Below, one piece after another: positions 5,001-51,254 of a stretch of 51,273 bases of DNA. The notes below the pieces were generated by a model. It saw only the letters and a list, made by a program, of their open reading frames with translations. It did not search any database and was not told the origin of the DNA. The stretch spans positions 1 to 51,273 of the forward strand of contig DASWJW010000075.1 in the NCBI GenBank assembly GCA_036396955.1, in the 5' to 3' direction. Positions within the stretch are counted from its first letter, which is position 1. Every line of letters starts with the position of its first letter. A program made the translations under genes and the position numbers. The stretch is from Planctomycetota bacterium. Its GTDB lineage: Bacteria; Planctomycetota; UBA1135.

Positions 5001-5445
5001 TACGGTGCGGATCTGGAACTTGGAGTCCGGCGACACCGAACGCGTACTGACCGGACACCGGGACACCGTGTGGTCCTTGGCCATCAGCCCCGACGGCTCA
5101 CGCATCGCTTCGGGCGGCGGCGACAACGCGATCCGGATCTGGGACGTCGCAAGCGGCGCGATGGTGCACGAGCTGCTCGGCCACGAAGCGCGGGTCTCGG
5201 CGCTCGACTTCAGCGGCGACGGAAAACGACTGGTTTCGGGTTCCTACGACCGGACTTTGCGACTCTGGGACCCGGCGGACGGCGCAGCCCTGCTCGCCTT
5301 GCGCGGCCACCAGGAATTCGTGACCGGCGTCGCCTTCAGTCCCGACGGCGCCCGCATCGTTTCGGTTTCCGCCGACAAGACCCTGAAGAGCTGGGAGACC
5401 ACGCCGGCGCTCGCTCGCTTCCGGGCGCGCGAACAAGGCGACTGA
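2038..5445 (+). CDS. Ser/Thr protein kinase - single TM segment - 14 WD40 repeats
   Basis: Hanks kinase motifs are present: GEIARGGMGAVFKV, AMKVV, HRDLKPANVMV, DWGLAK, GTPHYMAPEQ. A hydrophobic segment VTAAALAAVLLLAVGGTVGLFLL lies at nt 3343-3411. After it come 14 WD40-like units (GH...SPDG...SGSxDxTxRxWD). The alternative start is ATG 2140 (MDDSSKP). Confidence 0.9.
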   Translation: MAVARVGQGKLARSTSRVRRNAPALPNQSSLDSPMDDSSKPANPESPAVESGFRQQLEKTYGAGVDPSVSLVDDSEAKIGTADPTARLAGPGKDKKERYRLDGEIARGGMGAVFKVFDTDLRRTLAMKVVLSQSGGESAPGAPRPKFEQQLLSRFLEEAQITGQLDHPGVVPVHEIGIDRDGKVYFTMRMVKGQSLDAIFDLARNREGGWNPVRAVDAVLKVCETMAYAHAKGVIHRDLKPANVMVGKFGETYVMDWGLAKVMSAKGREERPAAPEDTALSIIQTDRESALQVDPQSPLLTLDGAILGTPHYMAPEQAAGRTHEIGPLSDVYCVGAMLYRLLTGKPPYFHVKRSVRDVLLAVLAGPPLAVAESAPNMPPELLAICAKAMAYAPADRYSSMMAMAEDLRAYLDGRVVRAHAAGAFAQFRKWVLRNRVTAAALAAVLLLAVGGTVGLFLLQQGKVRAVTAERALTLIAKNQAETNEARALRQGYLASLIASDVSLRANEMPEARRSLADCDPAMRGWEWLHLDLKADTSLLQLDGHEGRIQQVGFCPDCAQVLSASADGTVRLWDSVTGELRRSYAGHDGPVTAAVFLPDGQRVLSLGGLDSRSLQIWGANTGNLSSVHEEPAPVHALALVPGTESVAFASGDSALKLFELRDWKPLWTMDEHGLKVNAVAVDPSGRIVASASQDRSVRVTEVASGEVLLLLEAHEAAVNAVAFGPRGERLASGSDDGTVRIWDARTGAELGVLRGNDPVYALAFSPDGKRLASGSFDKTLRIWDLETMRQTAVLRGHDRFVSSLAFSGDGHLLLSGADDGSVRLWDAAQGAAVSSFAAPAELSAIAVSPDSRRIVTGSAWPGALELREAGSGRVLRTFPELDDAVTALAFRADGTHFVAATEEMASLYVWQVESGELVATLGPHDASVTSADYSPTDDQVASGSDDSSVRIWNARTGEQLADLRGHEQPVTAVRFLPDGKRVVSASQDRTVRIWNLESGDTERVLTGHRDTVWSLAISPDGSRIASGGGDNAIRIWDVASGAMVHELLGHEARVSALDFSGDGKRLVSGSYDRTLRLWDPADGAALLALRGHQEFVTGVAFSPDGARIVSVSADKTLKSWETTPALARFRAREQGD

Positions 5446-9108: not shown

Positions 9109-10854
9109 TCAGGCGCCACTGCGCCCGTCGGCTGCGGGCAACGGCTGGCCCGCCTGCCAGCCGGCGTTGTGCAGCAGCGTGAGCAACGCGAGCACGGCCG
9201 GGCGCTGCGCGTGGCTCAAGAGCAGCAGCAGGTCGCCGCGCGCGGCCCACGACAACGCGGCGCGCGCGGCGGCGAGTTCGGAATCGCAGCGTTGCACGGC
9301 CTGCGGCGGCAGGCCGCTCGCGCACAACTCTTCATGGAGCAGCTGCACCACTTCGCCCGCGATGCGGCCGCGCTGGTATTCGGCCATTTCCTTCAGGAAC
9401 ACGCGGTCGGGCGCCGCGCGCACGGCGACCTGCGCCAGGGCGCGGATGGCGGCGTCGTCGCGGTCGCCGGCCTGGCCGAGGATCAAGGCGCGCCGTTGCG
9501 CCGGCAGCGCGGCGACCAGGTCCATGAGCGGCTCCATGGCGTGGGGGTTGTGCGCGAAATCGACCAGGACCCGCACTCCGCCGAGCTCGAATTCGTTCAA
9601 GCGGCCGGGGTTCTCCTCGGCGCTGTTCGCAAAGCTCCGCAGGCCCGCGCGGACGGCGTCGAGCGACAGGCCGAGCGCGGAAGCCACCGCGACGGCGGCC
9701 GCGGCGTTGGCTACGTTGTGCCGCGCCGCCCCGCCGAGCGTGGCCGGGATTTCGGCGACGGGCAGCACCGTTTCCCGACCGGCGGCGCCGTGGCGCACCA
9801 GCTCGCCGTCGTCGAGCACGCACGCCTCGGCGCCGGCGGCCAGGCGTTCGCGCAAGCCCGGGGCCGCTGGATCGAGGCCGAACCAGCCGACCGCCAGGTC
9901 GGGCGACAACGCGCGTTCGCGCAGCACCTCGTCGTCGGCGTTCAGGACCAGGTGCCGGGCCACGCGCGCGACCACGAACTTGGCGTCGGCCAGGCCTTGG
10001 AGGTCGCCGACCCCGAACTCGCCGAGGTGGTCCTCGGCGATGTTGGTGATCAGCGCGACCTCGGCGCGCTGCACCGCCAGACCGCGCCGCAACATGCCCC
10101 CGCGCGCGGTTTCGAGCACCGCCATCTCGACCCGCGGATCGCGCAGCACGCGCCGCGCGCCGCCGGGGCCCGACCAGTCGCCGGTGGCGACGATCTCGTC
10201 GCCGACGCCGATCCAGTCGGTGGTCGAGACTCCGGCGACCAGCCCGGCGGCGCGGATCATCGCGCGCAAGAGCCGCACGGTGGTGGTCTTGCCGTTGGTT
10301 CCCGTGACCAGCGCGACCGGCACGTCGTGGATCCGCTCCCAGTCGACTGCCTCCGGCGCCGGCAGATCGCCGGCCGGCCAGCAGCGCGCGCCGGTGCCCA
10401 GGCCCACGGAAACATGCTCGTCGTCGCTCGAGAAGGCGACGTCGCGGCACTCCGCGGCGCGCTCGAGCGTCCGCAACGCCGGGTTCGATTCCGCCTCGAT
10501 GAGAGCGCGCAGATGCGTCGCGGCCTGGTCGAAGGACGGCTCTTCCGTGCCGTCCAGACGGGCGGCAGCGGCGGCGACCGCCCATTCGTTGACCTCGGTC
10601 GCGGCGTAGAGCGCGTCGCGCGGCGCCGCGAAGCCGACGCTCGCCCCGCCGGCGAAGACGCGCACCCACAATGGCTCCTCCGCCCAGCCGACCGCGGCAA
10701 GGATCCGGCGCACACATTCCCGCCAGGCCGCGATCACGGCCCCGGCGTCGGCATCCGCCAGCCCCAGGTCCGCGACCGCCCCCGCCCGGTCCCCCAGGAG
10801 GTTCGGGCCGGTCAAGCGACGGCTGTCGCGCAGTTCGAGGCGCGCGGGTTTCAG
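9109..10854 (-). CDS. cyanophycin-synthetase paralogue with N-domain plus Mur-ligase-like M-domain, no ATP-grasp domain
   Basis: The N-terminus RLTGPNLL resembles a CphA N-terminus. The M-domain reads VALVTGTNGKTTTVRLL...VLETARGGMLRRGL...ITNIAEDHLG...LNADD and parallels the M-domain of the adjacent cphA (ITGTNGKTTTARMV...VLETARGGLLRRGL...LNADD). There is no ATG or GTG near the expected start. The candidates are CTG 10854 (overlapping the cphA TGA as CTGA), CTG 10833 and TTG 10815. Confidence 0.78.
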   Translation of the reverse strand: MKPARLELRDSRRLTGPNLLGDRAGAVADLGLADADAGAVIAAWRECVRRILAAVGWAEEPLWVRVFAGGASVGFAAPRDALYAATEVNEWAVAAAAARLDGTEEPSFDQAATHLRALIEAESNPALRTLERAAECRDVAFSSDDEHVSVGLGTGARCWPAGDLPAPEAVDWERIHDVPVALVTGTNGKTTTVRLLRAMIRAAGLVAGVSTTDWIGVGDEIVATGDWSGPGGARRVLRDPRVEMAVLETARGGMLRRGLAVQRAEVALITNIAEDHLGEFGVGDLQGLADAKFVVARVARHLVLNADDEVLRERALSPDLAVGWFGLDPAAPGLRERLAAGAEACVLDDGELVRHGAAGRETVLPVAEIPATLGGAARHNVANAAAAVAVASALGLSLDAVRAGLRSFANSAEENPGRLNEFELGGVRVLVDFAHNPHAMEPLMDLVAALPAQRRALILGQAGDRDDAAIRALAQVAVRAAPDRVFLKEMAEYQRGRIAGEVVQLLHEELCASGLPPQAVQRCDSELAAARAALSWAARGDLLLLLSHAQRPAVLALLTLLHNAGWQAGQPLPAADGRSGA

Positions 10855-13643
10855 TCTTCGATCTCGCGGGCGAGCCGCACGCCCCGCTCGTCGCGGATGA
10901 GCTGGTCGCCGGCGCCGAGTTCGAGTTCGGACTCGGGCAAGGCCGGCAGGTCCATGGGCGGGGCCCCCGCCGGCCGCGCCGCGGCCGCGCCGGCCTGGTC
11001 GGGCGCGAACTCGGTGATCTGCTTCCAGCAACGCTTGACGTTGTCGCCGAAAGCGAGCAACAGGTCGTCGGTGCGCGCGAGCCGCAGCGCGGTGCCGAGC
11101 GCCTCGACTTCGTCGGGGATCATCTGGATCCGCTCCTGCGGGACTCCGCACTCCAGGAGCGTCGCTTCGAGCATGCGCGGGACCTCGTCCAGGCCGCGGC
11201 CGCGCGGATGGTCGTCGCGGCGCACCACGTAGTGGTCGAAGTGCCCGGCGCAGTGCCTGGCGATATCGCGGACGTCCTGGTCGCGGCGGTCGCCCGGGGC
11301 CGCCAGGACCACCAACTTGCGGCCTTCGACGTCCAGGTTGTCGACCAGCTTGACCATCGCCTCGACCGCCGCCGGGTTGTGGCCGTAGTCGAGGATCACC
11401 TTGAAAGGATGGTCGTGGAACACGTTCATCCGCCCGGGCGCCTGGAAGAAGCTCGTGTCGAACGTGCGCAGGCCGTGGCGGATCTCCTCGAGCTTGACTC
11501 CCATGCTGAAACACACCGCTGCCGCGAACATCGCGTTCTGGACGTTGTGCATGGCGCGCCCTTCGAGGGTGGCCGGGATCAAGTGGGTCCACAACAAGGG
11601 GATGTGCTGGCCCTTGTCGTAGATCGTGATCATGTGGCCGCCCATCCCTTCTTCGAGCGCGACTGCGCGGCCGCCGGCGCGGATGTGCTCGCGCACCAGC
11701 GAGTGGTTCGGGTTCCTCGTCACGTAGCAGAGATGCTCGGCCTGCGTGTAGTCGGCCATCTTGAGGCACAACTCGTCGTCGGCGTTGAGCACCGCGGTGT
11801 CCTTGGCCACTTCGACCACGATCCGTTTGACCTTGGCGAGGTCTTCGAGCGTCTCGACGCCGCGCAAGCCCAGGTGGTCGGCCTGCACGTTGAGGACCGC
11901 GCCGACGTTGCAGCGCTTGTACCCCAGTCCGCGGCGCAGCAGGCCGCCGCGCGCGGTCTCGAGGACCGCGACGTCCACCGAGGGATCGCGCAGCACCATG
12001 CGCGCGGCGAGCGGACCGGTCAGGTCGCCTTCGACCGTCGCGTGGCCGTCGACGTAGACCGCGTCGGTGGTCGCCAGGCCGACGTGGCTGCCGGACATCT
12101 TGAACACGTGCGCGACCATCCGCGCGGTGGTGGTCTTGCCGTTGGTGCCCGTGATCGATGCGATGGGGATCCGCGTGGGCGAACCGGGCGGGAACAGCAT
12201 GTCGATCACCGGACCGGCGACGTCGCGCGGCGTGCCTTCGCTGGGCGCCACGTGCATGCGGAAACCCGGTGCGGCGTTGACCTCGCAGATCGCGCCGTGG
12301 GTCTCCTTGAACGAGCGCGTGATGTCGGTGGTCAGGAAATCGACGCCCGCGACGTCCAGGCCGATCGCCTTGGCGGCGCGCACGGCCATCTCACGGTTGT
12401 CGGGGTGCACTTCGTCGGTCACGTCGACCGCGGTGCCGCCGGTCGACAAGTTGCCGGTCGAGCGCAGGTACAGCAGGTCGCCCTTCTCGAGCACGGTCTT
12501 GTCGGTCACGCCGCGCAGCGCCATGAGCCGGTGCGCCTGGTGGTCGAATTCGAGGCGGGTAAGCACCTTCTCGTGGCCGATGCCGCGGCGCGGGTCGGCG
12601 TTGACCAGCGCGACCAGTTCTTCGACGTCGTGCTCGCCGTCGCCGACCACGTGGCCGGGGACGCGTTTCGACGCCGCGACGAGCGCGCCGTCGACCACCA
12701 GCAGCCGGTGGTCGAGGCCCTCGATGAAGCTCTCGACCAGCACCGTGCGGCTGTGCTCGCGGGCCTGGTCGAAGGCCGCGCGCACCGCATCGGCGTCGTT
12801 CAGGTGGGTCGACACGCCGCGGCCATGGTTGGCGTTGAGTGGCTTGACCACGACCGGCCAGCCGATCCGCTCGGCGGCGCGCACGGCTTCGCCGGCGTCG
12901 TCGACGATCGCCTGCCGCGCCACCGGCAGGCCCAGGTCGCCGAGCAGCTTGTTGGTCTCTTCCTTGTCCGAAGCGATTTCCACGGCGATGTGCCGCGTCT
13001 CGCTGGTCACCGTCGCCTGGATGCGCTTGCCGTACTTGCCGTGCCCGAACTGCACCAGGCTGTAGCGGTTGAGCCGCAGCCAGGGGATGCCGCGCGCATC
13101 GGCGGCCTTGACCAGCGCCGCGGTGCTCGGCCCCAGTGCGCGCCGCTGCGCGAAGCGGATGAAGGAATCGCGCTCGGCCGCGAAATCGAAGCCGTCTTCG
13201 CGGTCCTGCTCGAGCGGGACTTCCGCCGGCAGCAGGCTGTGCAGGAAGCGCAGCGCCAGGCGGCCGGCCTCGAGCCCGACTTCGTCGTGCTCGTACTCGT
13301 AGACCACGTCGTACTCGCCGGGCCGCCCGGTGCCGCGGGTCTTGCCGAAGGTGACGTCGGCGCCGGCCACGTTCTGCAGCTCGATCGCGACGTGCTCGAG
13401 CACGTGGCTGAGCCAGGTGCCTTCGTCCTCGCCGAGACGGCGCACGAAACCGCCGGGTTCGCCGTAGGAGCAGCCGTGTTCACGCAAGCCGGGCAGGTGC
13501 TCGAGCAGCGCAGCGGTGAACCCGCTGCCGAGCCTGGCGGTGGGCCATTCTTCGAGGACGCCCAGGTCGAGGACCTGGCGGATGACCCGGAAGTGCGCAT
13601 ACAGACTCGGGCCGAGATAGACCGATCTGGAGAGGACTTTCAC
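10851..13643 (-). CDS. cphA: cyanophycin synthetase (N, ATP-grasp G and Mur-ligase-like M domains)
   Basis: 930-aa ORF. The N-domain is MKVLSRSVYLGPSLYAHF. An ATP-grasp region follows (VVVKPLNANHGRGV...GLDHRLLVV...NLSTGGTAVDVT...). The M-domain contains GTNGKTTT. The GTG start overlaps the cyanophycinase stop (GTGA at 13640-13643). Confidence 0.92.
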   Translation of the reverse strand: MKVLSRSVYLGPSLYAHFRVIRQVLDLGVLEEWPTARLGSGFTAALLEHLPGLREHGCSYGEPGGFVRRLGEDEGTWLSHVLEHVAIELQNVAGADVTFGKTRGTGRPGEYDVVYEYEHDEVGLEAGRLALRFLHSLLPAEVPLEQDREDGFDFAAERDSFIRFAQRRALGPSTAALVKAADARGIPWLRLNRYSLVQFGHGKYGKRIQATVTSETRHIAVEIASDKEETNKLLGDLGLPVARQAIVDDAGEAVRAAERIGWPVVVKPLNANHGRGVSTHLNDADAVRAAFDQAREHSRTVLVESFIEGLDHRLLVVDGALVAASKRVPGHVVGDGEHDVEELVALVNADPRRGIGHEKVLTRLEFDHQAHRLMALRGVTDKTVLEKGDLLYLRSTGNLSTGGTAVDVTDEVHPDNREMAVRAAKAIGLDVAGVDFLTTDITRSFKETHGAICEVNAAPGFRMHVAPSEGTPRDVAGPVIDMLFPPGSPTRIPIASITGTNGKTTTARMVAHVFKMSGSHVGLATTDAVYVDGHATVEGDLTGPLAARMVLRDPSVDVAVLETARGGLLRRGLGYKRCNVGAVLNVQADHLGLRGVETLEDLAKVKRIVVEVAKDTAVLNADDELCLKMADYTQAEHLCYVTRNPNHSLVREHIRAGGRAVALEEGMGGHMITIYDKGQHIPLLWTHLIPATLEGRAMHNVQNAMFAAAVCFSMGVKLEEIRHGLRTFDTSFFQAPGRMNVFHDHPFKVILDYGHNPAAVEAMVKLVDNLDVEGRKLVVLAAPGDRRDQDVRDIARHCAGHFDHYVVRRDDHPRGRGLDEVPRMLEATLLECGVPQERIQMIPDEVEALGTALRLARTDDLLLAFGDNVKRCWKQITEFAPDQAGAAAARPAGAPPMDLPALPESELELGAGDQLIRDERGVRLAREIED

Positions 13644-18029: not shown

Positions 18030-19232
18030 ATGTACACGGTCACCAAGGATCTGGTTCTGCCCGCCACCGTCACCGGTTCGTGGCCGCGCCCGCGCTGGTT
18101 CGACAAGAGCTTGTGTGGCAAGGGGCTCGACACGGCGATGCTCGACGTACAGCACCGCGAGCAATACACCGACGCGGTCGCCACGGTGTTGAGCGACCAG
18201 GAACGCGCCGGGCTCGACATCCTCACCCACGGCGACCTGCACTGCGACGACGACCTGGCCGGCCGCTCCTGGCACCACTATCCGCTGCAGCGCTGGAAAG
18301 GCTTCGCCGGCGACCACCTGCAGTCCGAAGCAACGCGCTCGCCTTGGCTGCGCTATCCGCCCGGCACGCTGCTCAACGAGATCTACACCGGCTGGCGCTG
18401 GCCGCAGGTGGTCGGCAAGATCGAGCACCGGCCGCTCGACTTCCCCAAGATCTGGCGGATCGCGCAGGCCAAGGCGCACAAGCCGGTGCGCTTCGGCACG
18501 TGCTGCACGCAGGTCATGGGCTTGTTCCTCGACTTGCACACCGACCAGTACACGGACACCCGCCAGGTGATCTGGGACATGGCCGAAGCCATGAACAAGG
18601 AGCTGCGCGCGCTGCGCGACGCCGGCTGCAAGGTGATCCAGATCGAGGAGCCGACGCTCCACTTCTGGGCCAACACTTACGGCGCCGACAGCGAAGAAGT
18701 GAAATTCATGGTCGAGGCCTACAACCGCGAAGTCGAAGGCCTGGAAGACGTGGAGATCTGGATCCACACCTGCTGGGGCAACCCCAACATGCAGCGCGTG
18801 ATCGACAACGACAGCTATGCGGCGTCCTTCGAGCTGTACATGCACGCGCTGCGCGGCGACGTGTGGACCGTGGAGATGACCGACCGCAGCTTCCGCGAGA
18901 TCGAACTCTTCGGCGCGCTGAAAGGCCGGCTGCCCAAGAAGGTCTGCGTGGGCGCGGTCAGCCACCGCAACTTGCAGGCCGACCGCGCCGAAGACGTGGC
19001 AGCTCGCATCCGCACCGCGCTCGAGCACGTCGACGCCGAGCAGCTCATCGTCTCCAGCGACTGCGGTTTCGGCCGCCAGGGCTGCAATCGCGAAATCGCG
19101 TTCTACAAGGCGACCGCCATCGCCCAGGGCTGCAACCTGGTGCGGCAGGAACTCGGCCTGGAAATGCGCTACGTGCCCGCAGCCGATCCGGCGCTGCAGA
19201 CCGACATCGTGCCCAAGACCGCCGGCGGCTGA
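18030..19232 (+). CDS. MetE-like (cobalamin-independent methionine synthase C-terminal domain family) protein
   Basis: 400-aa ORF starting MYTVTKDLVLPATVTGSWPRP. The Zn-ligand-like motifs IWIHTCWGN (HxC) and IVSSDCGFG are present. It begins 8 nt after the oxidoreductase stop. Confidence 0.8.
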   Translation: MYTVTKDLVLPATVTGSWPRPRWFDKSLCGKGLDTAMLDVQHREQYTDAVATVLSDQERAGLDILTHGDLHCDDDLAGRSWHHYPLQRWKGFAGDHLQSEATRSPWLRYPPGTLLNEIYTGWRWPQVVGKIEHRPLDFPKIWRIAQAKAHKPVRFGTCCTQVMGLFLDLHTDQYTDTRQVIWDMAEAMNKELRALRDAGCKVIQIEEPTLHFWANTYGADSEEVKFMVEAYNREVEGLEDVEIWIHTCWGNPNMQRVIDNDSYAASFELYMHALRGDVWTVEMTDRSFREIELFGALKGRLPKKVCVGAVSHRNLQADRAEDVAARIRTALEHVDAEQLIVSSDCGFGRQGCNREIAFYKATAIAQGCNLVRQELGLEMRYVPAADPALQTDIVPKTAGG

Positions 19233-43337: not shown

Positions 43338-45302
<1,965 letters not shown>

Positions 45303-45326
45303 GGGTCCGCGCCGGCCGGCGGCGCG

Positions 45327-45356
45327 CTGGCAGGCGCCCGCCCCGGCTGATAGAAT
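45327..45356 (+). promoter_or_regulatory. candidate sigma70-type promoter for the riboswitch-led transcript
   Basis: CTGGCA (45327-45332), an 18-nt spacer, then TAGAAT (45351-45356), about 75 nt upstream of the riboswitch P1 stem. This is a motif match only. Confidence 0.3.
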
Positions 45357-45431
45357 CCTTGCGCCAACCGCCCTCGGGCGGGGACGCTCGATCCTTTCCA
45401 TCGCCAGGCGGGGCCCACGCCCCGCCAAAAG

Positions 45432-45599
45432 CCCTCGGGTGCCGGGAAGGAGGTGAAAATCCTCCACGGTCCCGCCGCCGTAAGCGCGGACGAGGGCTGC
45501 CGAGGGTTCCTGCAGGAACCCGGAACGCCACTGCGCCGATCGGAGCGCGGGAAGGTGCAGCCCGAGATCGATGCGCAAGTCGGAACACCGGTCCGGGGG
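45432..45599 (+). promoter_or_regulatory. cobalamin (B12) riboswitch aptamer
   Basis: Conserved core elements occur in the canonical order. GGGAAGGAGGTGAAAATCCTCCACGGTCCCGCCGCCGTAA lies at 45444-45483. GCCACTG lies at 45527-45533, paired downstream with GGGAAGG at 45549-45555. The B12-box-like AGTCGGAACACCGG lies at 45578-45591. The P1 stem pairs CCCTCGG (45432-45438) with CCGGGGG (45593-45599). The aptamer sits in the 341-nt gap between acs and the next gene. Confidence 0.85.
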
Positions 45600-45643
45600 A
45601 TGGCTTTCCCAAGTTCCGGGCGAGGTACCCGGCAGGAGTCCCG

Positions 45644-47086
45644 ATGTTCCGATCTTCCCTTCCGCGCCCCGCGTCGGCGGCGTTAGCGCTTCTCGTTCTG
45701 TCCGCACTTTGCGCCACGGACGCGCCGGCGCAGACCTTCCGCCAGGAGATTTCGCTGAGCGGCTTGGGCAACGGCAATCCGGCCAAGCCCTTCGGCATCA
45801 CGTACGAGCGCTACAGCGGCCGTTTGTTCGTCGGCGTCGCCGGCCAGTTCTTCGCCGACAACGACGTCGTCGCGCTGCTCGATCCCGACTCCAAGGCGGT
45901 GCTCGGCACCTTGCAAGCCGGCTTGTTCCCCGAGGACGTCGCCTTCGCCTACGACCAGAGCGGCCGCCCCACTTTCGGCGCGGTCACCAACTCGACCAGC
46001 GGCAGCGTCACCGTCTGGGACGCGAACACCGATGCGGTGGTCGCCACCGTGCGGCTGCCCGACCCGCAGGGCTTCGGCACCGCTTATCCCTTCGGCATCG
46101 CCGCCAGCCCCGGCGGCGGGCGATTCCACGTCACCACGCAGGACGGCAGCGGCGCGGTGTACGCGCTCGATCTCGCCGACCTCGCGCTCGATCCGGCCGC
46201 CGCATTCCAGCTCGGCGGCAACGTCGCCGGCGGCCGGCCGCTCGCCGTCGCCCGCCGGTTGTTCGTTCCGGCCACGTTCCAGGATCCCGCTTTCACCGGA
46301 TCCCTGGGCGGAATCGCCGCGGTCGATCTCGGCGCAGGCGGCGTGGCGTGGTCGCGCCAGCTCGTCGACCGCCGCGGCGCCTTCCAGTGGCCGAGCAGCC
46401 AGGCCGTGGTGGCGCTCGCCGACGGCCGCCTGATCCTGGGCGGCACCGGCTTCGAGGGCCGCCTGTACGTGCTCGAGCAGGACGGCACGCTGCAACGCAC
46501 CTTGCGGATCGGCACGCCGCAAGGCAGCGCGCACGGTCTGGCCCTGTCGCCCGACGAGTCCTTGCTGGTGGTCTGCGACCTGGCCGGCAATTCGCTGGCG
46601 GTGATCGACCTGTTGAACATGGAAGAGATCGCCGTGATCGACTTGACCGCGATCGACGGGACTTTCAAGGAGCCCAACGCCGCGGTGTTCGTCGGCGCGG
46701 AACTGTTCGTCACGCTGCAGGGGAAGGAGAGCGTGCTGGTGTTCGACGACTTCCCCGCGCCCTTGCCAGGCGGCGGCTTCGCCGGCGCGCTCACCGTCAG
46801 CGACTCGGCGCCGGCGTTGGGCGGCGCATTCGCAGTCGGCGTGAGCGGACCGGGCCGGGTGGCGATCCTCGCGAGCACCGAAGACACTGCGGCGGTGGTC
46901 GCGGGCGTCGCCCTGCTGCTCGGCCCCGCCCCGGCCGTGCAAGGCAGCGCGGCGGGCGCCGCGACGCGGACCTACACGATTCCGTCGAATCCGGCCTTCC
47001 GCGGCCGCCACTTCTTCTTCCAGGGAGTGGTCGACGTCTTCGGCGCGCCGCGCGCGACCGCGCCGCGGATGATCGTGGTCCAATAG
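45644..47086 (+). CDS. secreted beta-propeller (YVTN/NHL-like repeat) protein with C-terminal beta-sandwich-like tail
   Basis: AGGAG lies 5 nt upstream of ATG 45644. The signal peptide is MFRSSLPRPASAALALLVLSALCATDAPAQ. The body has repeated units such as PFGITY...GRLFVGVAG, PEDVAFAYD, AYPFGIAASPGGGRFHVTT, GLALSPDESLLVVCDLAGNSLAVIDL. It lies in the C-terminal part of track ORF 42752..47086. Confidence 0.8.
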   Translation: MFRSSLPRPASAALALLVLSALCATDAPAQTFRQEISLSGLGNGNPAKPFGITYERYSGRLFVGVAGQFFADNDVVALLDPDSKAVLGTLQAGLFPEDVAFAYDQSGRPTFGAVTNSTSGSVTVWDANTDAVVATVRLPDPQGFGTAYPFGIAASPGGGRFHVTTQDGSGAVYALDLADLALDPAAAFQLGGNVAGGRPLAVARRLFVPATFQDPAFTGSLGGIAAVDLGAGGVAWSRQLVDRRGAFQWPSSQAVVALADGRLILGGTGFEGRLYVLEQDGTLQRTLRIGTPQGSAHGLALSPDESLLVVCDLAGNSLAVIDLLNMEEIAVIDLTAIDGTFKEPNAAVFVGAELFVTLQGKESVLVFDDFPAPLPGGGFAGALTVSDSAPALGGAFAVGVSGPGRVAILASTEDTAAVVAGVALLLGPAPAVQGSAAGAATRTYTIPSNPAFRGRHFFFQGVVDVFGAPRATAPRMIVVQ

Positions 47087-47136
47087 GCCGCCGGCATCGC
47101 GCCAGGGCGGCCTCCTGGCGCGCACCCGCCCCGCTC

Positions 47137-47168
47137 CCGCCCCCGCCTTCCCGTCGAGGCGGGGGCGG
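47137..47168 (+). terminator. strong GC hairpin downstream of the beta-propeller gene
   Basis: CCGCCCCCGCC-ttcccgtcga-GGCGGGGGCGG is a perfect 11-bp stem 50 nt after the stop. There is no U-tract. A second 8-bp hairpin, GCGCGTTG...CAACGCGC, lies at 47192-47221. Confidence 0.4.
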
Positions 47169-47270
47169 CGTAATCTCGGCGGTCCGAATTCGCGCGTTGC
47201 GCCACAGACTCCACAACGCGCGCGCGCCTTCGTGCGTACGCAAGCGCCGAGTCCGGACTCTGGACGAGAG

Positions 47271-48272
<1,002 letters not shown>

Positions 48273-48287
48273 TCGCGCGACCGGGAG

Positions 48288-49172
48288 ATGGCGCGGCTCT
48301 CCGTTCCCGAGATCCTCCGCAAGGTGCGGAGAGTGCGTCTGGCGGCCAACCGCCAGGTCGACGACCTGTTGTCGGGCGGCTACCAGTCGGTGTTCCGCGG
48401 CCAGGGCATGGAATTCGACGAGGTGCGCGAATACCAGCCGGGCGACGACATCCGCTCGATCGACTGGAACGTGACCGCGCGCGCCGGGCGGCCTTTCGTC
48501 AAGCGCTACTCCGAAGAGCGCGAGCTCACCGTGCTGTTCGTGGTGGACGTCTCCGCCTCCGGAGTCTTCGGCTCGCAGGACGGCGCCAAGCTCGACCTCC
48601 TGATCGAACTCGCGGCGGTGCTGATGTTCGCCGCGGCGCGCAACCAGGACAAGGTCGGCCTGCTGTTCTTCGCCGGCGAAGTGCTGCAGTTCGTGCCGCC
48701 GCGCAAGGGCCGCGGCCACGTGATGCGCTGCTTGCGCGAGCTGGTGGCGGTCGAGCCCCGCGCCGGCGGCACCGACATCGCGGCTGCCGCCGAGTACTTG
48801 CGCGGGGTGCAGAAACGGCGCGCGGTGGTGTTCCTGCTCTCCGATTTCCTCGCTCCGCTCGACGAGCGCGTGCTCGCGGCGGTCAAGCACCGCCACGACT
48901 TGATCGCGGTCAGCGTGAGCGATCCGCACGAGCGCGAACTGCCGGCCGCGTGGCTGCGGCTGCTCGACCCCGAGACCGGCGAGCTGGTCGAAGCCGACGG
49001 CCGCTCTCCGGCGGTGCGGCGCGCCTTCGCCGACAAGGCCGCGCGCGGCGAGGCCCGCCTGGCCAAGACTTTGCGGCGCTCCGGCGTCGACCGCCTGCCC
49101 TTGTGCTGCGGCGAGGCCTATCTGCAGACCCTGCTCCGTTTCTTCGAGATGCGCCGACGGCGCGTGCACTAG
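48288..49172 (+). CDS. DUF58 domain protein (MoxR-associated)
   Basis: GGYQSVFRGQGMEFDEVREYQPGDDIRSIDWNVTAR...FVVDVSAS... is the typical DUF58 signature. The gene sits directly after moxR. Confidence 0.85.
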   Translation: MARLSVPEILRKVRRVRLAANRQVDDLLSGGYQSVFRGQGMEFDEVREYQPGDDIRSIDWNVTARAGRPFVKRYSEERELTVLFVVDVSASGVFGSQDGAKLDLLIELAAVLMFAAARNQDKVGLLFFAGEVLQFVPPRKGRGHVMRCLRELVAVEPRAGGTDIAAAAEYLRGVQKRRAVVFLLSDFLAPLDERVLAAVKHRHDLIAVSVSDPHERELPAAWLRLLDPETGELVEADGRSPAVRRAFADKAARGEARLAKTLRRSGVDRLPLCCGEAYLQTLLRFFEMRRRRVH

Positions 49173-49176
49173 GCCG

Positions 49177-50187
49177 ATGCGATTCTCCCGCCCGCTGTTC
49201 GCGCTGTTTCTCGCCGCCGCGCCGGCGGCTTGGAGCGCGGCGCCGCTCGCGGGCCAGGCGCCCTTGGTGCGCGACGCCGAGAACGGCGAAGTGCGCTTGC
49301 ACGTCGAACTGCGCCCGACTGCGCCGCGGCTTTCCGACCCCGTCGAACTGCGGGTCGAGATCGAAGCGCCCGAACGGCTCGAACTCGCGCCGCTGGAATT
49401 CGGCGAGCGCCTTGGCGACTTCGAGATCCGCGCCGTCCGCGAAGAGCCGTCGACTCTGCAGGACGGCCGCCTGATCGTGCGCCGCACGCTGACGCTCGAG
49501 CCGCGCCACGCCGGCACTCTGGAACTGCCGCCGCTCGCGATCGGCTGGCGCGAGCAGGACGGCAAGGTCGGCTTCGTCGAGACCGCGGCGCTGCTCGTCG
49601 AAATCGCGAGCGAGGCGCCGCCTGGCGCCGACTTCGACGCGCTGCACGGCGCCGCCGAACCGCTCGATCCCGCTCCCGCGGCGCCGCCCTGGCGGCCGAT
49701 CGGCGCCGGCGCCGTGGCGCTCGCCCTGCTGGTGCTCGCGATCCGCGCCTTGCGCCGCCGCGGACCCGCGCTCGCGGCAGCACCGCCGCCCCCGCCGACC
49801 GCCACGCCGCGGCAGCGTGCCCGCGCCGGCCTCGACGCACTGCAGCAAGCGCGGCCCGCGCCGGGCGGCGACCTGGTGCCCTTCATCGCGCGGCTGACCG
49901 GAGTCGTGCGGATCTTCGTCGAAGAAGGCTGCGGCGTGCGCGCGCCCGAGCAGACCACCGAGGAGTTCCTCCAAGCGATCGCCGTCCACCCGGACTTCGA
50001 CGGCAAGCAGCGGCAGCTCCTCTCCGGTCTGCTCGAGATCGGCGACCTGGTCAAGTTCGCGGCCGCTGCGCCCGGCGTCGAAGCCCTGGACGCGAGCCTC
50101 GCGAACGCGCGCCGCTTCGTCGACGGCTTCGGCGGTCCCGAGTCGGCCGCCGACCGGCCCTCCTATCCGCTGGAGCTCGCCGCGTGA
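49177..50187 (+). CDS. membrane protein with DUF4381-like C-terminal region (Bat-operon component)
   Basis: A signal peptide and an N-terminal beta-rich region are followed by the TM segment IGAGAVALALLVLAI. The C-terminal region ...IARLTGVVRIFVEE...EQTTEEFLQAI...LLEIGDLVKFAA is a DUF4381-like pattern. The position between DUF58 and BatA fits. Confidence 0.6.
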   Translation: MRFSRPLFALFLAAAPAAWSAAPLAGQAPLVRDAENGEVRLHVELRPTAPRLSDPVELRVEIEAPERLELAPLEFGERLGDFEIRAVREEPSTLQDGRLIVRRTLTLEPRHAGTLELPPLAIGWREQDGKVGFVETAALLVEIASEAPPGADFDALHGAAEPLDPAPAAPPWRPIGAGAVALALLVLAIRALRRRGPALAAAPPPPPTATPRQRARAGLDALQQARPAPGGDLVPFIARLTGVVRIFVEEGCGVRAPEQTTEEFLQAIAVHPDFDGKQRQLLSGLLEIGDLVKFAAAAPGVEALDASLANARRFVDGFGGPESAADRPSYPLELAA

Positions 50188-51254
50188 GCCGCTTCGACTT
50201 CGCCGACCCGCTCTGGCTGCTGGCGCTGCTCCCGCTCGCCGCGCTGGTGGCGTGGAGCTGGCGGCGCGGCCGGCGCGCCGCGGCGGTGTACTCGTCGGCG
50301 CAGTTGCTCGAAGGCCTGCCGCGCAGCACCGCGCAGCGTCTGCGGCCGGCCACGCCGTTTCTCTTGTTCCTGGCGCTCGGCCTGGTGGTGGTCGCACTCG
50401 CGCGTCCGCGCATCGGCTCCGAAGAGCACCGCGTGCGCCGCGAAGGCGTGGCGATCGTGGCCGCGATCGACCGCAGCCACTCGATGGCCGCGCTCGACTT
50501 CGAAGTCGACGGCCAGCCGATCACGCGCCTGCAGGCCGCCAAGCGGGTGCTGCGCGACTTCATCGCCGGCGGCGAAGCGCTGCCGGGCCGGCCCAGCGAC
50601 TTGATCGGCCTGGTCGCCTTCGGCGGCTACGCCGAGAGCCTCGCGCCGCTCACTTTCGACCACCAGGCGCTGCAGAGCGTGCTCGACGGCGTCGAGCTGC
50701 CGCCCGACCGGCGCGGCGAAGTGCGCGACCAGCAGGAACTGCAGCTCGCCGAACAGGAAGGCGCTACGGCGATCGGCGACGCGATCGCGCTCGGCGTCGA
50801 GCGCTTGCGTCAGATCGACGCCAAGAGCCGGGTGGTCGTGCTGCTCTCGGACGGCGAGAACACCGCCGGCGCCATCGAGCCGGCCGACGCGGCGCGGATC
50901 GCCGCCGGACTCGGCGTGCGGGTCCACACCATCGGCATCGGCCGCACGGGGCCCGCGCCCTTCCTGGTCACCGACCGCCTGGGCCGCAAACGCACCGTCA
51001 CCCAGGTGGTGCGGCTCGACGAGCGCGCGTTGCGCGAAGTCGCCGAGACCACCGACGGCAAGTACTTCCACGCCGAGAACGCCGAGGCGCTGCGCGAGGT
51101 CTACGCCGCGATCGATACCCTGGAGAAGACCGAGATCGAAGGCGAGATCTTCACCTACTACGACGAGCGCTTCCAGCTCGCGTTGCTGCCGGGCTGCGGC
51201 CTGCTCGCGCTGCTCTTCCTCGCCCGCGCCACGCGTTTCCGCACGGTGCCCTGA
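50184..51254 (+). CDS. batA: BatA-like von Willebrand factor A domain membrane protein
   Basis: The GTG start overlaps the upstream TGA (GTGA). The N-terminal TM pair is FADPLWLLALLPLAALV...FLLFLALGLVVVALARP. The VWA MIDAS motif is VAAIDRSHSM, followed by LSDGENTAG. A C-terminal TM segment is present. Confidence 0.85.
   Translation: MSRFDFADPLWLLALLPLAALVAWSWRRGRRAAAVYSSAQLLEGLPRSTAQRLRPATPFLLFLALGLVVVALARPRIGSEEHRVRREGVAIVAAIDRSHSMAALDFEVDGQPITRLQAAKRVLRDFIAGGEALPGRPSDLIGLVAFGGYAESLAPLTFDHQALQSVLDGVELPPDRRGEVRDQQELQLAEQEGATAIGDAIALGVERLRQIDAKSRVVVLLSDGENTAGAIEPADAARIAAGLGVRVHTIGIGRTGPAPFLVTDRLGRKRTVTQVVRLDERALREVAETTDGKYFHAENAEALREVYAAIDTLEKTEIEGEIFTYYDERFQLALLPGCGLLALLFLARATRFRTVP

Follow-up and report, generated by a model that had tools for sequence, protein, structure and literature searches.

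A cobalamin riboswitch precedes a conserved secreted beta-propeller gene in Planctomycetota, a candidate for B12 capture

A cobalamin riboswitch lies directly upstream of a gene for a secreted beta-propeller protein in a Planctomycetota contig of 51,273 nucleotides (DASWJW010000075.1), the whole of which is referred to here as the window, and the association of riboswitch and propeller gene is universal among the related loci examined. The locus as a whole is best explained as a B12-repressed unit that encodes a BtuG-like corrinoid-capture propeller, a reading that we hold at a probability of roughly 0.55. By analogy, the product would most likely be an exported, acidic corrinoid-binding (scavenging) protein, a functional counterpart of BtuG from Bacteroides. 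Given that every Planctomycetota relative examined has the same switch, this uncharacterised propeller family is a strong candidate for a new B12-capture protein. The features of the locus are:

45327-45356, plus strand: promoter-like element, CTGGCA and TAGAAT spaced by 18 nt, with TG before the -10 box; the sole sigma-70-like site in 45250-47300
45420-45610, plus strand: cobalamin riboswitch aptamer, RF00174, long form with P6 extension; full-length cmscan match
45449-45465, plus strand: aptamer stem-loop GGAGG-UGAAAAU-CCUCC, with compensatory changes at 3 of 5 base pairs over 28 loci
45452-45462, plus strand: core motif GGTGAAAATCC, present in the cmscan alignment
45470-45474, plus strand: L5 loop UCCCG, the aptamer-side kissing-loop partner, equal to the published L5 consensus; 45471 covaries with 45625 in L13
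45576-45592, plus strand: B12 box AAGTCGGAACACCGGTC, in register with the conserved B12-box columns of RF00174
45606-45609, plus strand: pyrimidine tract UUCC, candidate anti-Shine-Dalgarno, complementary to GGAG at 45635-45638
45616-45632, plus strand: P13 hairpin, stem CCGGG/CCCGG, L13 loop CGAGGUA at 45621-45627; in 28 of 28 loci
45634-45638, plus strand: Shine-Dalgarno (SD) AGGAG, read from the sequence, 5 nt before ATG
45644-47086, plus strand: coding sequence with stop codon, by translation, for the 480-aa secreted propeller protein; start common to 16 full-length homologues
45644-45730, plus strand: signal peptide, residues 1-29, ending AxAQ with Gln30 invariant; in the alignment, a hydrophobic, variable N-terminus before Q30
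45731-46753, plus strand: seven-bladed YVTN-type beta-propeller, residues about 30-370; 28 strands, AlphaFold pLDDT 91.6
46781-47083, plus strand: C-terminal beta-sandwich, residues about 380-480, all-beta, pLDDT 90-97, ending in conserved ...VVQ
47136-47170, plus strand: GC-rich terminator-like hairpin without U tract, 13-14 bp stem, in the fold of 47080-47240; z-score -3.3

The only Rfam match in the window, as found with cmscan, is RF00174 (clan CL00101) at 45420-45610 on the plus strand, with 67.1 bits against a gathering score of 31.5, an E-value of 1.7e-14 and coverage of the full model (1-189). An earlier note on this DNA had proposed a cobalamin riboswitch upstream of the gene; its location holds, but the start of the aptamer is about 12 nt further upstream than the coordinate given there. 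The aptamer motifs that had been named, including the GGUGNNAAUCC loop of the conserved core, GCCACUG, GGGAAGG, the B12 box and the closing P1, are all found in the cmscan alignment. The MetE-like gene at 18030-19232, which encodes a Meth_synt_2 protein, has no riboswitch, as had been stated, since the only Rfam match lies elsewhere.

Conservation of the switch was followed in a set of 28 distinct orthologous loci, all from Planctomycetota MAGs. A cobalamin-clan aptamer and a P13 hairpin are directly upstream of the gene in 28/28 loci, and the B12 box is kept in all of the leaders. The association persists even as the aptamer type differs between subclades, from the long RF00174 form to a compact, AdoCbl-II-like form. 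The Rfam gathering score is reached in 16 of the 28 loci, while eight fall below it with E-values of 5e-6 to 5e-3, always directly upstream. The last four (L008, L023, L024 and L032) comprise three weak matches and one missed, and the core motifs are visible by eye in each. L008 and L023 score 59-67 bits with a custom model, R1, whereas L024 and L032 are among the sequences from which R1 was built. The same model finds aptamers upstream of the distant subfamilies B and C (L033, L038, L039 and L113), and L035 and L036 retain the 3' half of an aptamer at a contig edge. At 73 loci for generic YVTN proteins R1 found no convincing aptamer upstream; these negative controls came from a metagenome scan with subfamily B, which returned mostly generic YVTN repeat proteins. 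The earlier note had held that a score below the gathering value, or orthologues never associated with such riboswitches, would count against its reading. The score above gathering in the window and the switch at all 28 orthologues and at the informative distant relatives leave both objections without force. A literature search on cobalamin riboswitches with propellers, YncE or Planctomycetes did not find the association, and a search of RNA runs found none with this sequence, with partial matches only in soil and sediment DNA metagenomes.

The gene appears to have its own promoter. One sigma-70-like site was found in 45250-47300, with 0.0 expected, and in 27/28 orthologous loci a TAnnnT hexamer (mostly TAGAAT, TAGACT or TAGGAT) precedes the aptamer core by no more than 110 nt, compared to a chance expectation of 19%. 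Downstream of the aptamer, the stem of P13 is preserved across loci by compensatory changes (UCGGG/CCCGA, CCGAG/CUCGG, GCCGG/CCGGC and CCGGA/UCCGG). The hairpin (CCGGG-CGAGGTA-CCCGG) and the SD had both been pointed out before and both are real, with the role of the hairpin now revised from a short stem before the SD to P13, the kissing-loop partner of the aptamer. Published work gives UCCCG as the L5 consensus (PMC10327014). The CG(A)GN of L13 pairs with NCCG of L5 to give a four-pair kissing loop in which an L13 nucleotide is bulged. The covarying pair, 45471-45625 in the window, is U-A in 14, C-G in 11 and A-U in one of the 26 distinct sequences, and is never unpaired; 97.6% of L5-L13 cells are paired overall, as compared to 44-63% when the partners are slid. 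A contiguous L5-L13 pairing, such as GGCG with CGCC, misfits some loci and was rejected, while the bulged register fits all.

The riboswitch and its kissing loop are therefore present at the locus. A P13/ribosome binding site mechanism with a kissing loop has been published for btuB and env8 (PMC10327014), and the perfect L5-L13 covariation, with C-G, U-A and A-U pairs, indicates a translational OFF switch of the btuB/env8 type. We infer the OFF direction, which is assumed from this precedent, as well as the way in which the SD is occluded; one cobalamin riboswitch that activates is on record (PMC10327014). An AGGAG or GGAGG element is at the equivalent place in 24/28 loci. With P13 forced to form in the fold, the SD is paired with the corresponding pyrimidine tract in most orthologous leaders; in the window itself, this pairing spans just 4 bp. 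A terminator scan found no intrinsic terminator in the leader, and a transcription-termination mechanism was thus rejected. The minimum free energy fold of the whole leader is just slightly ahead of shuffled sequences (z -2.2) and does not reproduce the aptamer, and was for these reasons set aside in considering the mechanism.

The gene product carries export signals and has a propeller fold. Its ATG is at 45644 rather than 45645, and the reading frame ends at 47086. The public gene call P0001 (440 aa) apparently begins at a TTG that is too far downstream. The 16 full-length homologues, at 40-51% identity, conserve the N-terminal signal peptide that had been described, and residues 1-28 have pLDDT below 50 in the AlphaFold model. 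The AxAQ motif followed by invariant Q30 indicates cleavage by signal peptidase I, and the family alignment has no conserved cysteine, such that the signal is not that of a lipoprotein. The earlier assignment as a beta-propeller is borne out by the TIGR02276 YVTN repeat (31.8 bits, above the cutoff of 27.85), by 1l0q as the best sequence match in the PDB, and by the seven blades of the AlphaFold model. The top Foldseek matches are 1l0q, 5c2v_B and 3vgz, with 1l0q, a propeller plus PKD domain, aligned over 438 columns. No Pfam family reaches its cutoff for the 480-aa protein. The terminal Q is kept in 16/17 sequences. Relatives are labelled "YncE family" in some sources, and the YncE equivalog (NCBIfam NF052280) was rejected at 17.6 bits against a cutoff of 400.

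Conserved loop residues are concentrated on one face of the propeller (21/88 versus 3/53, p 0.005, with faces set by topology rules), suggesting a specific ligand. The mature proteins are acidic in all 17 cases, with net charges of -14 to -35, and acidity is common among secreted proteins. Neither His nor Cys is conserved in the family alignment, and no cofactor motif can be recognised.

In the core family, the propeller gene is monocistronic and its neighbors vary, and it is thus the propeller gene itself that is the regulated target. The proposed check for orthologues beside btuB or btuFCD turned up no such neighbor: no btuB, btuFCD or cob gene adjoins the propeller gene in any core locus, and no TonB-dependent receptor is found in 12 annotated loci. 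In one subclade (8 loci), the propeller gene is followed by a gene for a small, OMP-like outer-membrane barrel lipoprotein, located in L004 at 9448-10089. At the single locus L035, a distant relative shares an operon headed by a riboswitch with a binding protein of the Peripla_BP_2 (BtuF-class) family; NCBIfam does not assign the latter specifically to BtuF. The strong hairpin reported 3' of the gene is present at 47136-47170, and scanning for terminators revealed no canonical intrinsic one after the gene.

The locus would thus act as a self-contained B12-repressed transcription unit, comprising a promoter of its own, the riboswitch and a single gene. When adenosylcobalamin or another corrinoid is sufficient, it would be bound by the aptamer (45420-45610), and the L5 loop (UCCCG, 45470-45474) of the ligand-bound form would kiss L13 (CGAGG, 45621-45625) of P13. 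Stabilized P13 would then allow the flanking pyrimidine tract to pair with or otherwise occlude the SD, which starts 2 nt past the hairpin, such that translation is off; when B12 is scarce, the gene would be translated. The product would be exported by the Sec pathway, with signal peptidase I cutting just ahead of the invariant Gln30. The strongly acidic propeller, with its beta-sandwich, would then most likely bind corrinoids on the conserved propeller face, thereby capturing scarce external or periplasmic B12 for uptake. In the one subclade, the co-transcribed small outer-membrane barrel lipoprotein may tether or partner the propeller.

Several other readings of the locus were weighed. Cobalamin riboswitches also regulate cobalt uptake systems (CbiMNQO, CbtAB and others), and the earlier list of established riboswitch targets is incomplete in that it lacks cobalt transporters and the accessory binders of Bacteroides. 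The propeller might therefore serve to acquire cobalt or another metal, with extracytoplasmic Co2+ or a chelate of cobalt bound to supply B12 synthesis, which would suit its strong acidity (net charge -14 to -35) and the metal-related genes nearby, CutC directly upstream in L004, L011 and L012 and YbjQ_1, a "putative heavy-metal-binding" gene, upstream of L033. Those genes, however, are upstream of the riboswitch and promoter and so are not co-regulated; the propeller gene has no cobalt transporter gene beside it, the alignment shows no evident conserved motif of the His, Cys or carboxylate-cluster kind that is typical of metal sites, and a 45-kDa propeller would be unusual as a metal chaperone, all of which make metal acquisition improbable. 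B12 riboswitches also repress B12-independent isozymes, which would allow for an enzyme that substitutes for a B12-dependent one or serves when B12 is lacking, by the logic of metE and nrdAB, such as an extracytoplasmic lactonase- or hydrolase-type propeller. We know of no B12-dependent enzyme outside the cytoplasm, and the protein would therefore have nothing to replace. The weak similarity to lactonase and SGL propellers (Lactonase in 5/17, best E 6e-5) is below cutoff and spans no more than one or two blades, the family lacks a conserved catalytic motif, and the closest folds (the YVTN S-layer protein, YncE and hydrazine synthase beta) are non-catalytic scaffolds, such that an enzymatic role is quite unlikely.

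A structural or adhesive surface component, resembling the YVTN S-layer proteins and serving, for instance, in attachment to B12-producing partners, would be under B12 control only indirectly and would bind no corrinoid. In favor of this, the surface-layer protein 1l0q of Methanosarcina, a YVTN propeller plus PKD protein, is the top match in both sequence and fold, the C-terminal beta-sandwich resembles cell-surface modules, and the gene is paired with the outer-membrane barrel lipoprotein in one subclade. A strict 28/28 association with the riboswitch despite the change of aptamer type is hard to explain in this way, given as well that riboswitches are lacking at the 73 generic YVTN loci and that conservation is concentrated on one propeller face, and we give this reading little chance.

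Most microbes need B12 but few make it, and capture proteins therefore shape microbial competition in soils, sediments and oceans. To our knowledge, almost nothing is known of accessory corrinoid scavengers outside Bacteroidota, and B12 uptake in Planctomycetota has been little studied. A B12 riboswitch that is kept in every member of a family despite changes in architecture is about the strongest pointer to a B12 function that comparative genomics can give. If the corrinoid-capture reading is correct, the family would be a second, independently evolved propeller solution for corrinoid capture and a new B12-binding scaffold, and its gene would serve to mark B12 limitation in metagenomes and metatranscriptomes. 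A wider proposal, which we consider tentative and somewhat short of even odds, is that the protein founds a new family, distinct from BtuG, of extracytoplasmic proteins that capture corrinoids with high affinity. Such a family would include the core Planctomycetota clade and at least two distant subfamilies, with uptake facilitated without an adjacent TonB-dependent BtuB, via the small outer-membrane barrel lipoprotein in some lineages and a BtuF-class binding protein in others.

Among known systems, the riboswitch resembles those of E. coli btuB and env8HyCbl in its L5 consensus UCCCG, its L5-L13 kissing loop, a P13 beside the ribosome binding site and the lack of a terminator, and it shares the bulged L13 nucleotide with env8. 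It differs in that the SD immediately follows P13 on the 3' side instead of lying within a ribosome binding site hairpin of its own, in that the anti-SD is the pyrimidine tract 5' of P13, and in that the gene controlled is neither a transporter nor a biosynthetic gene. The protein is similar in repeat class and fold to the YVTN surface-layer protein of Methanosarcina mazei (1L0Q; E 1.3e-12 with the family profile, Foldseek 5e-17), in which an Ig-like domain likewise follows the propeller, and to E. coli YncE (3VGZ; 4e-5 with the family profile, Foldseek 1.6e-13), but identity to either is about 15%. We know of neither as B12-regulated. BtuF (Peripla_BP_2) and DUF4465 (BtuH/BtuJ) are likewise extracytoplasmic, riboswitch-controlled B12-binding proteins, with binding predicted in the case of the propeller. 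Their folds are unrelated to it, and PF01497 and PF14717 gave no Pfam match in 17 family members at E up to 0.1.

BtuG, that of Bacteroides thetaiotaomicron being BT1954 and its paralogues (PDB 3DSM, 8BMZ), has reportedly been defined, by Wexler in 2018, by BlastP homology to BT1490, BT1954 or BT2095 at 1e-10. The PDB contains BtuG structures, among them 3DSM and 8BM0, yet no BtuG chain appeared in phmmer and profile searches of the PDB at E up to 10, and the suggested Foldseek comparison did not place BtuG among the best 50 of 1177 significant matches. DUF5074, a cell-surface propeller family of Bacteroidota, was also rejected, given that four members score 20-23 bits against 27.2, out of blade register, with similarity at the repeat level only. 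The protein is not considered a BtuG homologue: no similarity to BtuG could be detected in its sequence, it lacks the lipoprotein cysteine, and its gene has no btuB beside it. BtuG is a surface lipoprotein with a conserved N-terminal cysteine, has its gene beside btuB and sits as a lid on this TonB-dependent transporter, whereas the propeller protein has a signal peptidase I-type signal and its gene adjoins no btuB. BtuG is found in Bacteroidota, and the propeller protein in Planctomycetota, with an extra C-terminal beta-sandwich and a usually monocistronic gene. The BtuG analogy drawn by the earlier note thus stands for riboswitch control and the seven-bladed propeller, but not for similarity to BtuG, the lipoprotein cysteine or neighboring btuB/btuFCD. 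Both are exported seven-bladed beta-propellers behind a cobalamin riboswitch, and both are acidic. In BtuG, cationic corrinoids are bound on a negatively charged propeller face via polar side chains (PMC10404256; PMC13616437). The published overlay of the BtuG2 structure used 1L0Q, which is also the best PDB match of the propeller protein.

The Rfam scan places a cobalamin riboswitch aptamer (RF00174) at 45420-45610 on the + strand, at 67.1 bits against a gathering score of 31.5 (E 1.7e-14) and with the whole model covered. This is the sole Rfam match above gathering score in the 51,273-bp window. All of the aptamer motifs named in the earlier note are present, and the short hairpin and SD that it described do precede the propeller gene. 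Two of its positions are revised, such that the aptamer begins about 12 nt further 5' and the gene starts at the ATG at 45644.

Elements of the propeller leader in the window
45327-45356, +, sigma-70-like promoter site including a -10-like hexamer, the only such site in the region
45407-45426, +, GC hairpin GGCGGGGCC-CA-CGCCCCGCC, 3' of the putative promoter and overlapping the first aptamer positions
within 45420-45610, +, GGUGAAAAUCC loop (Rfam alignment)
45470-45474, +, C-rich L5 loop UCCCG (Rfam alignment)
within 45420-45610, +, GCCACUG and GGGAAGG (Rfam alignment)
45576-45592, +, B12 box (Rfam alignment)
within 45420-45610, +, closing P1 (Rfam alignment)
45616-45632, +, P13 hairpin with 5-bp stem and 7-nt loop, 3' of the aptamer
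45634-45638, +, SD AGGAG, 3' of the P13 hairpin

The GC hairpin at 45407-45426 could be a leader structure or the remnant of an acs terminator. The propeller ORF, of 480 residues, extends from the ATG at 45644 to a stop at 47084-47086. All homologues back this ATG. The public gene call P0001 (440 aa) starts 40 codons further 3', at 45764, on what appears to be an internal TTG. Likewise, the call P0012 at the orthologous locus L011 begins at a GTG, with a conserved SD and ATG 33 nt upstream (L011 7957-8001), and both calls appear to be 5'-truncated. The sequence of the propeller locus was not found in any RNA run by a sequencing-run search.

A word-indexed search of 5.8 billion proteins returned only 16 homologues, at 40-51% identity; wherever the source organism is labelled, it is a Planctomycetota MAG. 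Scanning one genome for each GTDB species yielded a further 19 loci, each from a MAG labelled Planctomycetota or Planctomycetales. With duplicates removed and the window included, the homologue contigs and the species scan give 28 distinct core loci, and every one has a cobalamin-clan aptamer directly 5' of its propeller gene, which answers the question raised earlier of whether orthologues share the riboswitch.

Detection of the aptamer at the 28 core loci
16 loci, Rfam gathering score reached (RF00174 or RF01689)
8 loci, sub-gathering, E 5e-6 to 5e-3 (RF01689 at 30-34 bits vs 36.5; RF01482 at 32-49 bits vs 50)
3 loci, weak in Rfam (L008, L024, L032)
1 locus, missed by Rfam (L023)

A custom covariance model, R1, was trained on 12 compact leaders from relatives, and its E-values are rough. 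With R1, L008 reaches 66.7 bits and L023 reaches 59.2 bits; as members of the training set, L024 and L032 have no independent score. The core aptamer motifs are visible by eye in all four of these loci. Two aptamer architectures occur across the subclades, the long form seen in the window, which is extended at P6, and a compact form that resembles AdoCbl-II, and the propeller gene stays behind a B12 riboswitch whichever is used. The gene is usually alone behind its riboswitch, with variable neighbours (often acetyl-CoA synthetase upstream, and MoxR/Bat, HEAT-repeat or other genes downstream). In 27 of 28 loci, the 110 nt that precede the aptamer core contain a -10-like hexamer of the form TAnnnT, most often TAGAAT, TAGACT or TAGGAT; the expectation is 19%. 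Therefore, the regulated unit is the propeller gene itself.

In the window, an operon for MoxR (AAA_3), DUF58, an unknown protein and BatA/VWA (47232-51254, +) begins 3' of a GC hairpin, which separates it from the propeller gene as had been proposed. In L001 this operon also lies 3' of the propeller locus, separated from it by one gene, and it is absent from most other loci, such that it falls outside the riboswitch unit. A short, 400-aa MetE-like protein (18030-19232, +) has the Meth_synt_2 catalytic domain only (E 1.1e-20) and, in agreement with the earlier note, no riboswitch. Short 'core-MetE' proteins are reported to use corrinoid-protein methyl donors, so this protein need not be B12-independent. 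Two adjacent cyanophycin-synthetase-like genes occupy 9109-13643 (-), one with Cyanophycin_syn N-terminal, ATP-grasp and Mur-ligase domains (10851-13643, -) and a second ORF with Mur-ligase M and C domains (within 9109-11769, -). A 1135-aa protein (2038-5445, +) contains a large WD40 block, with nine stretches that fit the WD40 model (E 4e-124); this protein is propeller-rich and unrelated to the propeller gene product.

The P13 hairpin is kept in all 28 core loci, with compensatory changes in its stem (CCGGG/CCCGG, UCGGG/CCCGA, CCGAG/CUCGG, CCGGA/UCCGG and GCCGG/CCGGC) and a loop that starts with CG(A/U/C)G. Pairing of L5 (5'-NCCG) with the hairpin loop (5'-CG-bulge-GN) was tested by aligning the aptamer stem-loop bearing the L5 segment, together with the hairpin, across all loci. 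Among the distinct sequences, the variable L5-L13 pair is U-A 14 times, C-G 11 times and A-U once, with none unpaired, and 97.6% of L5-L13 cells are paired overall, as opposed to 44-63% when the partners are slid. This pseudoknot is the L5-L13 kissing loop by which the expression platforms of cobalamin riboswitches are defined. The window L5 is identical to the published consensus UCCCG, a bulged L13 has a precedent in env8, and stabilisation of P13 by the kissing loop promotes RBS occlusion in both btuB and env8 (PMC10327014). In the core loci, the SD starts 1-2 nt 3' of P13. Folding with P13 enforced pairs the SD with a pyrimidine tract on the 5' side of this hairpin in most of these loci; in the window this pairing is limited to UUCC (45606-45609) with GGAG. 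No intrinsic terminator was found in the window leader. From this, the kissing loop, the position of the SD beside P13 and its pairing with the pyrimidine tract, we infer an OFF switch that acts on translation as in btuB/env8, including both its direction and the anti-SD.

Searched exhaustively with HMMER, the family profile separates three tiers: 12 core clusters (E below 1e-130), about 50 full-length relatives at a greater distance (1e-80 to 1e-30) and generic multi-repeat YVTN proteins. The distant relatives are mainly subfamily B (propeller-only, ~390 aa) and subfamily C (~480 aa). A metagenome scan seeded with subfamily B gave six relatives close enough for family membership and more than 70 generic YVTN loci. 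R1 matches a cobalamin-type aptamer directly upstream of the relatives at L033 (subfamily B), L038 and L113 (subfamily C) and L039, and gives no convincing match in 73 generic YVTN loci. The B12 link is thus a property of this propeller family, not of YVTN proteins generally. At L035 and L036, a 3' aptamer half (CCACUG, GGGAAGG, AGCCAGAAGACC) lies at the contig edge. Both subfamily C loci examined (L038 3519-5654, L113 11563-13722) have a gene for a ~715-aa protein with an FGE-sulfatase (EgtB/SenA-like) domain 3' of the propeller and a divergent RluB-type pseudouridine synthase upstream, in conserved synteny.

No Pfam family reached cutoff for the propeller protein, and NCBIfam gave only the generic YVTN repeat TIGR02276 (31.8 bits vs 27.85). 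DUF5074, a family of cell-surface propellers from Bacteroidota, is seen below threshold in 4 of 17 family members (P0009, P0011, P0016 and one more; 20-23 bits vs 27.2), out of blade register, and these matches look like repeat-level similarity. The closest solved structure by sequence is 1l0q, a Methanosarcina surface-layer YVTN propeller (E 9e-6 for the sequence alone and 1.3e-12 for the family profile). Confidence is high for an AlphaFold2 model computed from 17 sequences (mean pLDDT 91.6, pTM 0.89). The model comprises a disordered N-terminal signal peptide, 28 beta-strands at residues ~32-367 that form seven four-stranded blades with an N-terminal strand closing blade 7, and an all-beta C-terminal domain at ~380-480. 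Foldseek ranks 1l0q, hydrazine synthase beta and E. coli YncE highest in the PDB, ahead of generic WD40 propellers.

The secreted propeller postulated earlier is borne out by these blades and by a variable, hydrophobic N-terminus that ends AxAQ with an invariant Gln30. Together with the lack of a conserved cysteine in the 17-sequence alignment, this end indicates a substrate of signal peptidase I rather than a lipoprotein. Gln30 (45731-45733) directly follows the predicted cleavage site and could yield an N-terminal pyroglutamate. The C-terminal (V/I)(V/I)Q (residues 478-480, 47075-47083) is kept in 16 of 17 homologues and in distant subfamilies that have the C-terminal domain, and may act as a signal for sorting or docking.

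Every one of the 17 mature proteins is acidic (net charge -14 to -35, pI 4.05-4.6). With faces assigned by propeller topology, conserved loop residues number 21 of 88 on one face (D-to-A and B-to-C loops) and 3 of 53 on the other (Fisher p 0.005). The conserved face includes the GLGNGN motif, S117, D140, DGSG 167-170, Q359 and E362, and conserved polar E97, N116, Q253/D254 and N345 border its loops at strand ends. Eight loci of one subclade have a conserved gene for a 214-224-aa protein, which starts 35-50 nt 3' of the propeller gene; it is absent from the window and the window's own subclade.

Small barrel-like gene
L004 9448-10089
L011 9415-10059
L012 9462-10112
L013 3012-3686
also L027, L030, L031 and L032

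Its product carries a lipoprotein-type signal (...SC/NFIPPYS) and ends in ...GYHF, as is typical of outer-membrane barrels; with a weak similarity to OMP_b-brl and DUF3575, this points to a probable outer-membrane location. At the subfamily B locus L035 (1-4583), the aptamer half leads an operon of four genes.

Riboswitch-led operon at L035
368-1405, secreted LIC_13355-like protein
1402-2604, subfamily B propeller, start/stop overlap with its neighbour
2469-3284, Dph6-like ATP pyrophosphatase
3288-4583, Peripla_BP_2 (BtuF-class) binding protein with an extra N-terminal domain

To our knowledge, every characterised exported protein under B12-riboswitch control is a part of corrinoid uptake (BtuB, BtuF, and BtuG, BtuH and BtuJ of Bacteroides). 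Taken together, the acidity, the one-face conservation, the outer-membrane-type neighbour and the L035 operon make an extracytoplasmic corrinoid-capture protein the best explanation, at a probability of roughly 0.55. The protein might instead bind cobalt or another metal, have a role confined to B12 shortage, or act as a surface or adhesion module. Each of these is less consistent with the strict, architecture-independent association with the riboswitch and with the lack of metal or catalytic motifs in the protein.

Full-text literature searches found no report that links a cobalamin riboswitch to a YncE-like/YVTN propeller or to Planctomycetes. As a riboswitch this one is ordinary, and the novelty lies in the protein family that it regulates. 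BtuG is a seven-bladed propeller that binds corrinoid on a negatively charged face via Glu, Gln, Asn, Ser and Tyr (PMC6143338, PMC10404256, PMC13616437), and Wexler et al. state that its homologues are restricted to Bacteroidetes (PMC6143338). The BtuG-like role proposed in the earlier note is retained here, but the propeller protein lies outside the BtuG family: sequence homology is undetectable, no BtuG entry is among the best 50 Foldseek PDB matches listed for the model, the lipoprotein cysteine is missing, no adjacent btuB was found at the propeller loci examined, and the phylum is a different one. The family is a candidate for a second, independently evolved propeller solution to B12 capture.
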